Shown here: piece after piece, positions 24,179 to 63,235 of the stretch
Layout of the letters: every line of letters starts with the position of its first letter
How positions within the stretch are numbered: position 1 is the first letter of the stretch
Assembly (NCBI RefSeq): GCF_035594765.1
Contig: NW_026943826.1
Location: 13,309,325-13,373,324 of the forward strand
Origin: Anolis carolinensis
Taxonomy: Eukaryota
DNA length: 64,000 nucleotides
Direction of reading: 5' to 3'
Made by a program: the position numbers and the translations under genes
Notes under the pieces: model-generated
The model's input: only the letters and a program-made list of their open reading frames with translations
What the model was told of the DNA's origin: nothing
Databases searched by the model: none

Positions 24179-24355
24179 ATGGAACACCTGTATCCCGTCT
24201 TACTTTGGGCAGGAAGAATGGCGGCCATTGGCTTACTCGCACTAATTGCCTGGGCAATGTATTACGATCGGTCCAAGACGACAATGGACCCCAGATTTGA
24301 CCATCCGTGGAAGCTCCGAACCCTTCACTGCTTGCTCATTATGACAATGACATTG
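24179..24355 (+). CDS. AADACL3/4-like: AADACL paralog A exon 1 (signal-anchor); gene 24179-29559, 410 aa
   Basis: MEHLYPVLLWAGRMAAIGLLALIAWAMYYD...PRFDHPWKLRTLHCLLIMTMTL, GTAAG donor. Confidence 0.85.
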
Positions 24356-24519
24356 GTAAGTTGGGAGGTTGCAAGAGAAAGGCGGGATGTGGTATGTTGT
24401 GAGGATACAAAATGAGCTCCGGATTGGCCAAACAGGTGGTGGTTGGTCAACCTGTCGGTGAAGTTAGTGGTATTTTGTCCAAAGATAGACATCCGATCAG
24501 GGTTGAGAACATTAATTTG

Positions 24520-25105
24520 GGCAGATGGTGGAGTCCAAAGAAGAACCCGTGGTCTCTTAGGATCATGGAATTGGAAGAACCATAGAGTTGGAAGAGACCT
24601 CATGAGCAAATGGTGAAGTCCAGAGAAGAACCCGTAGTCTCATAGGATCATGGAATTGGAAGAACCATAGAATCATAGAGTTGGAAGAGACCTCATGTGT
24701 AGATGGTGGAGTCCAGAGAAGGACCCGTGGTCTCATAGGATCATGGAATTGGAAGAACCATGGAATCATGGAGTTGGAAGAGACCTCATGGGTAGATGGC
24801 GAAGTCCAAAGAAGAAACCGTGGTCTCATAGGAACATGGAATTGGAAGAGACCTCATGGGTAGATGGTGGAGTCCAGAGAAGAACCTGTGGTTCGTAGGA
24901 TCATGGAATTGGAAGAATCATGGAATCATGGAGTTGGAAGAGATCTCATGGGCAGAGGGCAAAGTCCAGAGAAGAACCCGTGGTCTCATAGGATCATGGA
25001 AGAACCATAGAGTTGGAAGAGACCTCATGGGCAGATGGTGAAGTCCAGAGAAGAGCCCATGGTCTCGTATGATCATGGAATTGGAAGAACCATAGAATCA
25101 TGGAG
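24520..25105. repeat. Minisatellite in paralog A intron 1
   Basis: ggatcatggaattggaagaaccatagagttggaagagacctcatg units. Confidence 0.85.
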
Positions 25106-25417
25106 ACCCCAAGGGCCATCCAGTCCAGCTACAAGACCACATGGAGGACCTCAAGGAATGACAGAAGATGTAGGTTGCATCTATATGGTGGAATTAATGC
25201 AGTTTGGTTCCTCTTGAACCTCCGTTGGCTCAAAACTATGGAATGATGGGAGTCATAGCTTGGTGAGACACCAGAAGTCTTTGGCCGAGAAGTTCTGAAG
25301 ACCTTGCAGAACTTTCTGGAGTAGAACAACTACGTTCCAGACCAGGAAATTTCCAAATTTTGTTACATTTGAGGACCGTCGTCCCGTTTTTCATTTGCTG
25401 TTGTTCTTCCCAAACAG

Positions 25418-25634
25418 GGCAAGATCCTCGAGTGGTCCGGCCTCTGCAAGCAGATCGAGTTAATCCGCTTCATGCTGAACCTCAAGAAGGCCAGGCTGCA
25501 CCCCGGCCTCTCCACCGAGGACCTCTGCTTCGACGGGGTGCCCGTCCGGATCTACCGGCCGAAAGCGCCCTCTGCTGGCCGGAGGAAAGGGTTCGTGTTC
25601 TTCCACGGCGGAGCCGGGATGATGGGCAGCATCG
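25418..25634 (+). CDS. AADACL3/4-like: AADACL paralog A exon 2 (HGG oxyanion motif)
   Basis: DGVPVRIYRPK...FVFFHGGAGMMGSI; 217 nt, AG/GT. Confidence 0.92.
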
Positions 25635-26764
25635 GTAAGAGACCGGCGTGCCCTTCCCTGGGAGTAATGATGCGTCTACACTGCTGAATTAGTGCCGTTG
25701 GGTGCCATGTGAACTGCTGTGGCTTTGTGCAATGGATTCCTAGGAATTATTGTTTTACAAGGCTTTCCATGTGAAAGAGTAGAGGGGTGCAAAATGCCAT
25801 AGAATTCGTTATGTTTTGGTTTTGTTCTGTTTTTGTTTTGTTCTTGTTCTGTTATTGTTCTGCTTTCATTCTGCTTTCAATCTGTTTTTGCGCTGTTTTC
25901 GTTCTGGTTTTGTTCTGTTTTGTCTTGTTCTTGTTCTGTTTTATTTTGCTTTCCTTCTGTTTTTGCACTGTTTTCGTTCTGCTCTCGTTCTGTTTTCCTC
26001 CTCATTCTGTTTTCATTTTGGTTTTGTTCTGTTTTCATTTTGATTTCTTTCTTTTATTCATTCTAGTTTTGTTCTGTTTTCGGGAAGATTCTGAATCTTG
26101 AATCCGAATCTCTTATAATCTCCCAGAATATTCCCGAAAAAAGAACAGGGGGGCTCCTGAAATCTGAAACAAAAAACAGAATGAAAACAAAACAGACATG
26201 TTCTGTTTTGGTGTTTTCATTTTTATTTTGTTCTGTTTTTGTTTTGATTTTCTTTATGTTTTCGTTCTAGTTTCGTTCTGTTTTCAGGAAGATCCCGAAT
26301 CCCGAATCCGAATAGCCCCTCTCGTAATCTCCCGGAATCTTCCCAAAAACAGAACTCCTAAAATTTGAAATGAAAACAGAATGAAATCTCTTTGATTTCG
26401 TTCTGTTTTTGGGGCCTCCCCTCTTCCCCCGTTCTGTTTTCGGGAAATCTCAAATCCCGAATCTCGAATCCCGAATCCAAATAGCCCTTCTCGTAATCTC
26501 CTGGAATCTTCCTGAAAACAGAACAGGGGGCTCCTGAAATTTGAAACGAAAACAGAACGAAACCTGAACAAATTCTCACACCCCTACCCCTACACTGGTG
26601 CCTTGCCGAACTACAACTCCCAGAATTCCACAAAATGCTGCTGTGGCAGTTCGAGTGGAATTATAGTGGCAAAATCCACACCCATCCACTTTTTACGTAC
26701 TTTATCATTTCGGTAAAAATTTCTTCCTTTTTGGCCACCACAACTCTGGTTTCTTCTCCCACAG

Positions 26765-26828
26765 ATTACTACCAAGATGTTTGCTCTAAACTTGCCAAGG
26801 ACAGTCAAACCGTGCTTGTGTCTGTGGG
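26765..26828 (+). CDS. AADACL3/4-like: AADACL paralog A exon 3
   Basis: YYQDVCSKLAKDSQTVLVSVG; 64 nt. Confidence 0.9.
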
Positions 26829-26845
26829 GTAAGTGAGTCCAAACA

Positions 26846-61041: not shown

Positions 61042-61215
61042 ATGGATTGGCTCTGGGCTCTCGCGGTGTCGTGGACCGTCTTCTGCATCGGCCTCTCGCT
61101 GCTCTTCATATGGGCCGTTTCTTTCCACCTCGCCGTCACAGACATCCCTCCCGGCATCGCTCAACCCTTCAGGCTCAGAGTTTTGCACTGTCTGTTGATC
61201 ATGCTATTCGGTCTG
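61042..61215 (+). CDS. AADACL3/4-like: AADACL paralog E exon 1 (gene continues beyond window)
   Basis: MDWLWALAVSWTVFCIGLSLLFIWAVSFHLAVTDIPPGIAQPFRLRVLH...; GTAAG donor. Confidence 0.87.
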
Positions 61216-61235
61216 GTAAGTTAATATATTCCTAC

Positions 61236-61778
61236 TAGACATGTCCAAAAAATCGTTTTGAATTGTATATCGGAATTATTTCGGATTGTTCTCGCTTTTT
61301 GATACGCATTCCGAGACATTGTCTCACAGCGCAACCAGCAATGTAATTCGAACCATTTGTTGGACCATTCTCTAATTGTCTCTTAATGTTTCGTTAATTT
61401 TTTTCCCCCATAAAAATTTTTAAAATATATATTTTTAAATATTAAAAAAAATTGTTTCTGCAACCTATCTTGAACGGGAGCTTAGAGCAGCCTAACATGG
61501 CTGCCGCTCCCCGGCCAATCAGAAGCTTCTACGATGGACGCAAAGGTGGGGGCTAATGTCCTCTGCGTCCACATGGAAGATTGCCATACAAGCCCAGTGT
61601 GTAGCGATTGCGCATGCGCGTCCGCCATTTTAGAAACATTTAGAATCATTACGAATTTCCGGAAATATCTGAAATTTTTGGGTGAAAAAATCGGAAATAC
61701 TTTCTATATCGAAGCGCCAGCGCCCCCTACTTTAGAAACGAGAATTGAAACATTTTTTTCATCGATCGGACATGTCTA
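61236..61778. mobile_element. hAT MITE 20 bp into paralog E intron 1
   Basis: Perfect 8-bp TSD ATTCCTAC; TIR TAGACATGTCC. Confidence 0.9.
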
Positions 61779-62627
61779 ATTCCTACCTTGTTTCGAAGTG
61801 ATTGTCTTTCAGGAACGCGGACTCGTACAATTTTGTAGAGTTGTGCAACCAAGTCTACAATATTTTCGGAGAATTTCAAATACATAGATAGACATCCCTA
61901 TCTTGTTTCCTTATACAAATCTATAGAAATGATTGTCTTTCTGGAAAGTGGACACGTACAATGATTGTAGAGTTGTGCAACCACTTCCACAATACTTTCG
62001 GAGACTTTCAAATAGATAATTTCATGCAATTTTTTAGTCGTCTTGTGACATTTCTTTCCAACGTTGACGTTCTGTGCTGGAAATAATGTTTTCTATCTGC
62101 GTTATCATCATCGGTGTCATCTGATATCTATGTTAATTTGATTCTATGGTTAAGTCCATTTAGCTCAGTTTTCTCAACCTGGGGGTCAGGACCCTGGGAG
62201 GGGTCATGAGGGGGTCTCAGAGGGGTCACCAAAGACCATCAGGAAACACAGTATTTTCTATGGGTCATGGGGTGTCTGTGTGAGAACTATGGCCCAATTC
62301 TATCATTGGTAGGATTCAGGATGCTCTTTGATTTATAGGTGAACTATAAATCCCAGCAACTACAACTCCCAAATGACAAAATCAATCCCTCCCCCAACCC
62401 CACCAGTATTCAAATTTGGGTGGATCGGGTCTTGGTCCAGTGAATGAAAATCCATACTGCATATCAGATATTTACATGATGATTCTTAACAATAGCAAAA
62501 TTACAGTTATGAAGTACCAACAGAAGTAATTTTATGGTTGGGGGTCAACACAATATGATGAAGTGCATTAAGGGGTCACAGCATCAGGAAGGTTGATTTA
62601 GCTGACTTTGATCGTCTTTGCCCACAG

Positions 62628-62844
62628 ATCTCTATCTTAAGGAAAATGCGTCTCTCTAACGGCTACGGACTTCTACGGTTAGCCATGGATGGCATACCAG
62701 CCCGGGAAGATCCCCATCTGTCCATCAAGGATTTGGTTTTGGATGGAGTCCCCGTGAGGATGTATCAGCCGAGAAGACCCTTTGGTGGGAAAAGGAGAGG
62801 AATCTTGTACTTTCATGGTGGAATCGGGCAATTTGGAAGCGTGG
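62628..62844 (+). CDS. AADACL3/4-like: AADACL paralog E exon 2
   Basis: DGVPVRMYQPR...ILYFHGGIGQFGSV; 217 nt. Confidence 0.92.
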
Positions 62845-63171
62845 GTAAGAAAATGATACAATAATACAAAATTAGATCCTAGGTGATCGTACAATCCTAG
62901 GTGCATATCATCTGCGAAGCGAATGAAAAATGGAAAAATATCTCGATTGATTTTTCAAGGTCCTGTGAGTTATTTATCTGGGTGCCTTAAACAAAAAGAC
63001 ACACAGATAGTGCTTTTGGAAGCTCTACTAGTTGCATCTTTGTCACAAAACGCATCTTATGTGTAGGCGTCTGGACAAACGTATTATTTGGGAATATAGG
63101 AAGTGGTTGAAGAACCTGAACCTGTTGGTTTACAAAACATATTTCAACAATACCATCCATTTCTCTCCTAG

Positions 63172-63235
63172 CGGCCTATGACAGACTGTGCCGGCGCATT
63201 GCAAAGGACAGCGATTCCATCGTGATCTCAGTTGA
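63172..63235 (+). CDS. AADACL3/4-like: AADACL paralog E exon 3
   Basis: AYDRLCRRIAKDSDSIVISV(E/D); 64 nt, ctag/gtaag. Confidence 0.88.

Follow-up and report, generated by a model that had tools for sequence, protein, structure and literature searches.

The stretch of DNA analysed here (the window, 64,000 nt) holds the first genes of an AADACL3/4-type array that runs past its end. Coordinates are those of the window, extended coordinates run beyond it, and the contig position is the coordinate plus 13309324. The features are as follows:

10878..15532, minus strand: exon-containing frames of a neighbouring short-chain dehydrogenase gene
24179..29559, plus strand: gene A, AADACL3/4-type (exons 24179-24355, 25418-25634, 26765-26828, 28785-29559)
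31951..36567, plus strand: gene B (exons 31951-32127, 33147-33363, 33814-33877, 35793-36567)
39653..48347, plus strand: gene C (exons 39653-39826, 41645-41861, 43331-43394, 47567-48347)
51186..56023, plus strand: gene D (exons 51186-51362, 51462-51678, 53044-53107, 55246-56023)
54275..54431, minus strand: inverted, decayed piece of the beginning of an A/B-type exon 4, within gene D intron 3
61042..63235, plus strand: gene E, exons 1-3 (61042-61215, 62628-62844, 63172-63235), HGGIG
63236..64000, plus strand: the part of gene E intron 3 inside the window, running to its edge
extended 64919-65672, plus strand: gene E exon 4, 0.9 kb beyond the window end; GDSIG, open, triad intact
extended 68448-72876, plus strand: gene F, Ser-type sister of the Cys genes, SGGAG/GESSG
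extended 75259-75435, minus strand: orphan exon 1, whose intron best matches M and K (78-88%)
extended, within 78173-139843: seven Cys genes, G-M (G, H, I, K and L minus strand; J and M plus strand), G-E-C-S-G
extended 143436-157240, minus strand: genes N and O, HGGVG/GDSSG
extended 212005-224526, minus strand: genes P and Q, located after what we take to be a CHD-type gene

Genes A-E all lie on the plus strand and share one architecture, with exons of 174-177, 217, 64 and 754-781 nt, GT-AG introns throughout in phases 0/1/2, and no internal stops. Gene A encodes 410 residues with HGGAG and GDSAG motifs and a triad of Ser196 (codon at 28912), Asp350 and His380; its exon 4 is 100% identical to the Anolis carolinensis database protein P0001, and gene B (410 residues, HGGAG, GDSAG) is 65% identical to it. 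The 411-residue products of C (HGGGG, GDSIG, Ser195) and D (HGGGG, GDSFG) are, once spliced, identical to database entries P0229 and P0469, and spliced E comes to 402 residues, 44-48% identical to A-D. The triad Asp and His accompany the GXSXG Ser in all five. These splice models confirm the original prediction of five same-strand paralogs with identical exon phases, A-D being complete, open and furnished with every triad motif, E wanting its exon 4 inside the window, and the oxyanion and elbow motifs being exactly as it had listed them. Its count of at least five genes also holds, the array extending far past that number: 12 further genes (F-Q) follow over about 160 kb, which brings the array to 17 genes in a span of about 200 kb, with 3 more of the family at other places in the genome.

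Averaged over pairs of A-E, identity falls to 28% in the anchor and 32-34% in the two cap segments but reaches 57% for the core and 70% for the Asp-His segment, which bears out the predicted divergence of anchor and cap. Assignment to AADACL3/4 is supported by Pfam (Abhydrolase_3 in exon 4 of A, B, C and D at 113-121 bits, cut-off 25), by the nearest database relatives, which are annotated AADACL3/4, and by the trees; array proteins in the databases are labelled AADACL3/4 or alpha/beta hydrolase fold-3 protein. The proposed membrane anchor likewise stands as a prediction (19-residue hydropathy 1.9-2.4 in A-E; helix 2-32 in the gene C model). Judged by their sequences, A-E are thus predicted membrane-anchored lipid ester enzymes with a standard Ser-Asp-His triad, ordinary members of a poorly studied family, and at least four of the five were already annotated. 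The decayed fragment at 54275..54431 matches gene B exon 4 at 85% over 108 nt. Pfam adh_short is found in all three frames tested of the dehydrogenase neighbour, presumably DHRS3; in human, AADACL3 and AADACL4 lie beside DHRS3.

The original prediction further saw in A-E a lineage-expanded array with diversified active-site motifs. The large set of paralogs supports part of this, and for none of the five genes do the sampled trees hold a one-to-one orthologue from a bird, turtle or crocodilian. Nevertheless, each of A, B, C and D has a one-to-one partner among the A. sagrei proteins, and geckos are present in every one of the classes C, D and E (SH-aLRT 99.9-100, as bipartition values, with the rooting taken from a tree with a fish AADACL4 outgroup). 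As a lineage novelty the motifs fail: GDSFG recurs in the D orthologues of gecko, monitor and agamid, HGGIG/HGGVG in birds and turtles, and HGGAG in chinchilla AADACL4. The site-model dN/dS check that it had called for returned purifying selection (omega 0.19) and no M2a signal. The motif variants are old class signatures common to other reptiles, and A-E look like old squamate paralogs, not a recent or anole-specific expansion. That A-E themselves form a lineage-specific, motif-diversified expansion, as the missing non-squamate orthologues and the 32-34% identical caps might suggest, is very improbable; the reading is largely refuted at the anole level and survives only as an expansion across squamates. 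Both the recent expansion and the true change of the active site sit downstream of A-E, beyond 24179..63235. A placement of mammalian AADACL4 as sister of the A/B class was discarded (SH-aLRT just 31, one mammalian sequence).

In G-M, Cys replaces the elbow Ser in every gene, always as TGT (G-E-C-S-G), and the triad His and acid are kept in all seven (Asp in six, Glu in K), as they are in the 7/7 A. sagrei Cys entries and all 12 Cys entries of the databases. In the gene G model (pLDDT 89) the Cys is the one coil residue that separates strand 185-195 from helix 197-210, the place equivalent to that of Ser195 in the gene C model (strand 184-194, helix 196-209); sequence and modelled secondary structure thus put the predicted Cys-His-acid triad in elbow register. 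In favour of the enzyme reading, 201 non-Anolis sequences define 41 exon-4 columns with conservation of 95% or more, and 34 of these are unchanged in 12 Cys proteins. That Asp and His persist says little by itself, since the Cys set is also invariant at 102 of the 216 less-conserved columns. The HGG His has become Pro in 7/7 (PAGGA, PGGAA, PSGGG, and PPCAA in J) and the second Gly is retained in 6/7; since the Ser-type F, P and Q also lack this His, its loss is not tied to the Cys. Counting against catalysis by G-M are this loss and the variable loop glycines, while KIAA1363 requires Gly114 of its HGG loop (PMC9229287).

G-M nest inside the AADACL4 tree with AADACL3/4 exon sizes and phases, and exon 4 of L gave no Pfam DLH match, its hits at E up to 0.001 being Abhydrolase_3 and BD-FAE alone. 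They are 80-91% identical to one another at the protein level, and their Ser-type sisters are 60-65% identical to them in A. carolinensis and closer in A. sagrei. An origin as assembly or haplotype duplicates is rejected on this divergence among G-M and on the identity of G and I to deposited proteins. With dS reaching about 0.2, all seven have open frames and undamaged splice sites, and six are complete. Gene J lacks exon 1, and with an orphan exon 1 nearby, some decay is under way; that this orphan is J's own exon, moved by inversion, is unlikely, the intron remnant of J being H/I-type (95%) and that of the orphan M/K-type. Intron joints of G occur in three of four sequencing runs examined (found with G exon 4 as query; no matching run listed is recorded as RNA or comes with a tissue), all three introns in X2, and these runs list no difference at the Cys codon; splicing of F was also observed, and the fourth run, X20, has no cover of F or G exons.

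Among database hits, Cys at the elbow is confined to Anolis (12 of 310 entries, and none of 148 distant representatives). The Cys clade is common to A. carolinensis and A. sagrei (support 100), with seven paralogs in the former and four or more different Cys types in the latter. Across 22 Anolis F-M-type sequences the site is solely Ser or Cys, with 4 parsimony changes, a pattern that unselected point mutation would give with P between ~0.024 for 3 changes and 0.0025 for 4, the initial one being left uncounted. Some of the nodes behind these changes have supports of just 58-79. In a home-written implementation of codon models applied to 7 sequences, the omega of G-M is 0.71, below 1 (P=0.003), and M2a improves on M1a (LRT 37.6), placing 47% of sites close to omega 0 and 10% close to 4.2. 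With separate trees the M2a signal falls in exon 1 (LRT 13.0) and exons 2-3 (LRT 24.4), and exon 4 has omega 0.36-0.54. G-M are thus under positive selection in exons 1-3 and purifying selection in the core. There are hints of gene conversion (P0138 looks chimaeric, exon trees differ); conversion could copy the Ser/Cys codon instead of repeated mutation, and it can inflate the M2a signal.

We propose, with a probability of about 0.5, that the array encodes membrane-anchored lipid ester enzymes of two kinds, A-E with Ser-Asp-His and G-M with Cys for Ser and likely acyl-thioester catalysis. In A-E, hydrolysis would take the ordinary course, with attack by Ser, an acyl-enzyme and then water; a small Gly where HGGGW has tryptophan would suit longer acyl chains, and the divergence of the caps would give the enzymes differing substrates. 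In G-M, an AGT-to-TGT change in the Anolis lineage would have created a Cys-His-Asp triad, and the Cys gene would then have duplicated separately in the two anole species while residues of the cap and oxyanion loop diversified. A thioester in a pocket that is hydrophobic and faces the membrane would pass its acyl group more readily to a lipid alcohol than to water, and we therefore prefer ester remodelling as the reaction of G-M, acyl transfer being favoured over hydrolysis by analogy. In related enzymes, acyl length is tuned by the residue after HGGG (PMC10099132), and in bacterial HSLs acyl transfer goes with the hydrophobicity of the cap (PMC7383625). Ser/Cys switches occur naturally in other alpha/beta-hydrolase groups (PMC9825947); a plain Ser-to-Cys exchange usually abolishes activity (PMC6642262, PMC9825947), and the exchange is functional when pocket changes accompany it (PMC6642262). 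At a little under even odds, we read the anole genes as natural cysteine lipases or acyltransferases derived from an HSL-type esterase by a one-base swap, with positive selection on the cap and repeated Ser/Cys switching. A skin or skin-gland site for the array proteins is plausible by analogy with chicken and mammals. Among open-access papers, judged from search listings, none turned up that deals with this array or with a Cys-type AADACL.

The most serious competitor, which we consider possible if clearly unlikely, is that G-M are dead or near-dead pseudo-enzymes that keep the fold and use diversifying pockets to bind lipids or small ligands, a parallel to the HSL-derived gibberellin receptor GID1. 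The nucleophile change does coincide with erosion of the HGG loop, positive selection is located in the cap and loop exons, the fold search recovers GID1 (Z 31.9, rmsd 2.8 over 297 residues), and Ser-to-Cys usually kills activity (PMC6642262). Yet the site is occupied by just the two nucleophilic residues, His and acid persist in all 12 Cys entries, unlike in GID1, where the His is lost, and the HGG His is absent also from the Ser-type F, P and Q. We give little credence to the idea that G-M are redundant recent duplicates becoming pseudogenes under relaxed constraint, their Cys a tolerated accident copied by duplication: an omega of 0.71 against 0.19 in the older paralogs, the truncated J, the orphan exon fragments and a TGT in all seven that fits a single event are what it would explain, but the open frames and intact splice sites of all seven genes, six of them complete, the 47% of sites near omega 0, the splicing of G and the sharing of the Cys clade with A. 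sagrei oppose it. Hardly credible at all is a shift of the nucleophile to the adjacent Ser197 of G-E-C-S-G, with G-M remaining serine hydrolases. All seven A. carolinensis genes do have this Ser right after the Cys, but it is the first helix residue in the G model, off the elbow, it occurs in Ser-type relatives as well (GDSSG, GESSG), and three A. sagrei entries read GECGG, without it.

The importance of the locus lies with the Cys clade G-M, not with the window genes A-E. With their Ser-type sisters, the Cys genes make matched natural pairs on which the question of natural cysteine lipases is directly testable. If the cysteine-lipase reading is true, anoles offer a natural series of Ser/Cys enzyme pairs. 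Active G-M would show evolutionary compensation of a nucleophile swap and may point to an anole-specific lipid chemistry; inactive G-M would represent the recent, datable birth of pseudo-enzymes under positive selection.

Among known systems, AADACL3 and AADACL4 (AADAC family, with relatives AADAC and KIAA1363/NCEH1) share with the array the Abhydrolase_3 domain and an N-terminal hydrophobic helix, and the triad positions are close (196/350/380 in the array, 191/348/378 in KIAA1363; PMC9229287). Chicken is also multi-copy, with AADACL4B, L3 and L5 (PMC8742010, PMC7923837). Unlike the vertebrate AADACL3 and AADACL4, the array has 17 genes, and its G-M carry Cys for Ser and no HGG His. The nearest solved folds are the bacterial and fungal HSL-family esterases Est8, EST2, TmelEST2 and RmEst (Z 36.4, rmsd 1.9 over 289 residues), which likewise set a variable cap above a conserved core and some of which are promiscuous acyltransferases (PMC7383625). 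They differ in being shorter serine enzymes, about 20-28% identical, and the fold matches begin after the N-terminal anchor helix. The GID1 match (3ebl, Z 31.9) is a case of the HSL fold in non-standard use; GID1 keeps the Ser and loses the catalytic His, whereas G-M keep the His and change the Ser.

A Cys nucleophile with His and acid, as in G-M, is found in dienelactone hydrolase, Cys-type thioesterases (such as MacB-TE) and N-acyltransferases; PhaC is another natural Cys alpha/beta-hydrolase. No cysteine hydrolase family appeared by title among the fold matches listed in two fold searches, a negative that rules none of them out. The natural Cys enzymes belong to other families, whereas G-M nest deep within vertebrate AADACL4, and the Ser-to-Cys switch is therefore independent and recent. 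MacB-TE is reported to transfer its acyl group, by macrocyclisation, in place of hydrolysis (PMC13288461). Closest to the proposed cysteine lipases is the engineered CALB QW4 (PMC6642262), which like G-M combines a Cys-His-Asp triad in an esterase scaffold with pocket changes. CALB QW4 is laboratory-made, and its authors pose the question whether nature has cysteine-lipases (PMC6642262); G-M, on their sequences, are natural candidates.

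Genes A to E, the five forward-strand AADACL3/4-type genes of the window, were modelled by hand together with the rest of their array. A six-frame motif scan of the window placed their HGG oxyanion motifs at 25604, 33333, 41831, 51648 and 62814 and revealed the nucleophile-carrying last exons of four of them. Each gene has four exons, GT-AG introns of phases 0/1/2 and no internal stop (410, 410, 411, 411 and 402 aa for A to E), and the triad Asp and His are present in all five. The spliced models bore out every motif quoted in the original prediction, and exon 4 of E, correctly said to be absent from the window, lies intact 0.9 kb past its end. 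The anchor and caps, described as divergent, indeed share 28-34% identity vs 57-70% in the core. Exon 4 of A is 100% identical to a database protein labelled Anolis carolinensis, and the spliced C and D models are identical to deposited proteins from clusters that bear the names AADACL3 or AADACL4; as the genes are annotated, the array is not new to the databases.

At least five paralogs had been foreseen; 17 genes (A to Q) were modelled in all, 16 of them complete and open, with J lacking exon 1. Searching the genome with exon 4 of A scored 26 candidates and returned 25 matches. These comprise 17 full last exons lying on the same contig within about 200 kb, two more about 1.1 Mb off, one on another contig, four pieces from distant genes of AADAC type and one fragment. 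A to O are contiguous, and P and Q follow a presumed CHD-type gene. The SDR gene preceding A is presumably DHRS3; a VPS13D-like frame ahead of it would fit the human order VPS13D-DHRS3-AADACL4. Minisatellites are numerous throughout the window. Other features of the region and genome are as follows (extended coordinates above 64000 lie past the window; adding 13309324 gives the position on contig G000:C17).

827-1261, forward strand: reading frame resembling the VPS13D C-terminus; no Pfam match.
45093-47489, intron 3 of C: retrotransposon fragments (Pfam RVT_1 and zf-RVT).
54275-54431, reverse strand, intron 3 of D: decayed, inverted start of an A/B-type exon 4 with upstream intron sequence, a trace of past array rearrangement.
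56070-56639, after D: piece similar to the retrotransposon fragments in the C intron.
75259-75435 (locus L062:4084-4260), reverse strand: orphan open exon 1 of cysteine-clade type, with intact donor site and M/K-like intron start; downstream exons absent.
104904-107430, forward strand, contig G000:C17: J, without exon 1 and head-to-head with I; its oxyanion loop, PPCAA, is the most altered, and J is the likeliest decaying copy.
About 12.200-12.212 Mb of G000:C17 (loci L048-L049), ~1.1 Mb away: two AADACL genes, HGGAG/GDSCG and HGGGF/GDSAG, which group with bird and turtle proteins and thus represent ancient classes.
About 90.917-90.925 Mb of G000:C4 (loci L051-L052): lone intron-containing AADACL4-type gene (HGGCA, GESSG) with a gecko relative, protein P0313.

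Trees were built from 246 sequences (FastTree) and 81 sequences (IQ-TREE, supports read by bipartition), a selection of matches from which most redundant bird sequences and unnamed entries were excluded. They upheld an AADACL3/4 paralog array but not a recent expansion of A to E, the classes being old. Each of A to D has its own A. sagrei partner protein. Geckos belong to three classes, C (99.9), D (100) and E (99.9), and support for the squamate A/B class is 99.6. F to Q cluster with HGGVG proteins of bird, turtle and alligator (88.4), a group that C/D/E then join (96.6); the sole mammalian sequence, chinchilla AADACL4 (HGGAG), has no firm placement (31). In A to E omega is 0.19 without M2a signal, synonymous sites being partly saturated. 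A recent origin of the motif variants was thus not supported: they are conserved class signatures. C-class orthologues (P0247, P0268) lacking the nucleophile in Elgaria (GDNLG, His to Tyr) and Tiliqua (GDGFG) are candidate pseudo-enzymes in other lizards.

We infer that A to E hydrolyse lipid esters as membrane-anchored serine enzymes whose caps differ by class. In bacterial HSLs, one study reports, the residue after HGGG sets acyl length, Trp loss shifting preference to longer chains (PMC10099132); since A to E carry Gly at the HGGGW Trp position, they may reasonably be expected to prefer longer-chain lipid esters. Net positive charge follows the anchor in 16/16 complete genes and no glycosylation site is common to all, a hint that the domain may face the cytosol.

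Seven genes, G to M (extended 78173-139843), read G-E-C-S-G at the nucleophile elbow, with codon TGT vs AGT in their Ser-type sister F. AlphaFold models G with pLDDT 89.3; there strand 185-195 and helix 197-210 are joined by a single coil residue, 196, at the elbow place taken by Ser195 in the model of C. The folds nearest to the G model are esterases of the HSL family (Z 36.4, rmsd 1.9, 289 aligned). Contigs of four sequencing runs, three picked because they contain G, were aligned to F and G: joints matching G introns occurred in 3/4 (all three introns in X2, two each in X1 and X3), the same runs showed the F last-intron joint, and the Cys codon of G showed no differences among the rows listed.

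Three protein searches (best 120 of 980, 908 and 1574 matches) yielded 310 proteins; among matches listed, which include only two anole species, 12 carry Cys at the site, five from A. carolinensis and seven from A. sagrei. Cys was found in none of 148 distant representatives (best of 61,367). G to M join the A. sagrei proteins in a single clade (100), within which the two species separate into subclades of their own (100 and 100), indicating that duplication continued separately in each species. The site is only Ser or Cys in 22 Anolis F-M-type sequences, with four parsimony changes on the exon-4 tree; some A. sagrei entries, drawn from two subspecies, may be orthologues. The probability of this pattern under random point mutation is 0.024-0.0025, but gene conversion could have copied codons at the site, and one database entry appears chimaeric. 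Entries P0122 and P0138 combine a last exon of G-M type with an oxyanion loop or N-terminal half of F type and are either annotation chimaeras or conversion products. Lacertids (Podarcis, Lacerta, Zootoca; P0144-P0200) have their own independent F-Q-type expansion, Ser throughout, some entries with altered loop HPGVG and His contexts DACH and DAGH.

We give Cys-dependent catalysis by G to M a probability of about one half: Cys-His-Asp would serve as triad, with an acyl thioester formed on Cys. His380 and the acid are kept in 7/7 (Glu in K), yet 102/216 less-conserved exon-4 columns are likewise invariant in the Cys set, so that Asp and His retention alone is no proof of catalysis. The HGG His is Pro in 7/7, but is also missing in Ser-type F, P and Q. 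That G to M are pseudo-enzyme binders seems less likely, and relaxed decay is quite improbable. Omega in G to M is 0.71, below 1 (P=0.003; codon models in our own code, 7 sequences). M2a was favoured over M1a (LRT 37.6; 47% of sites near 0, 10% near 4.2), also with J excluded (LRT 29.8) and with a separate tree per block (exon 1, LRT 13.0; exons 2-3, LRT 24.4), the exon 4 halves giving no signal (LRT 2.4 and 4.5; omega 0.36 and 0.54). The posterior exceeds 0.9 at nine sites, of which five fall in the anchor and N-terminal cap and one is oxyanion-loop residue 123.

The open-access literature yielded no paper on this array or any Cys-type AADACL. AADACL2-4 are without established function (PMC9229287), and chicken gene names point to several AADACL copies (PMC7923837). 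Outside the anole, a link to skin comes from chicken AADACL4B, which is up in differentiating keratinocytes (PMC8742010), and from mammalian AADACL3, whose expression covers skin, breast and placenta and which whales and pangolins have lost (PMC10277264). The cysteine clade adds a directly testable question to an otherwise known kind of gene. Other papers describe natural Ser/Cys switches in thioesterases, N-acyltransferases and dienelactone hydrolases (PMC9825947), cyclisation in place of hydrolysis by a Cys thioesterase (PMC13288461) and bacterial HSLs whose hydrophobic caps favour acyl transfer (PMC7383625). Plain Ser/Cys swaps mostly fail without accompanying pocket changes, according to the authors of an engineered cysteine-lipase, who ask if natural counterparts exist (PMC6642262).
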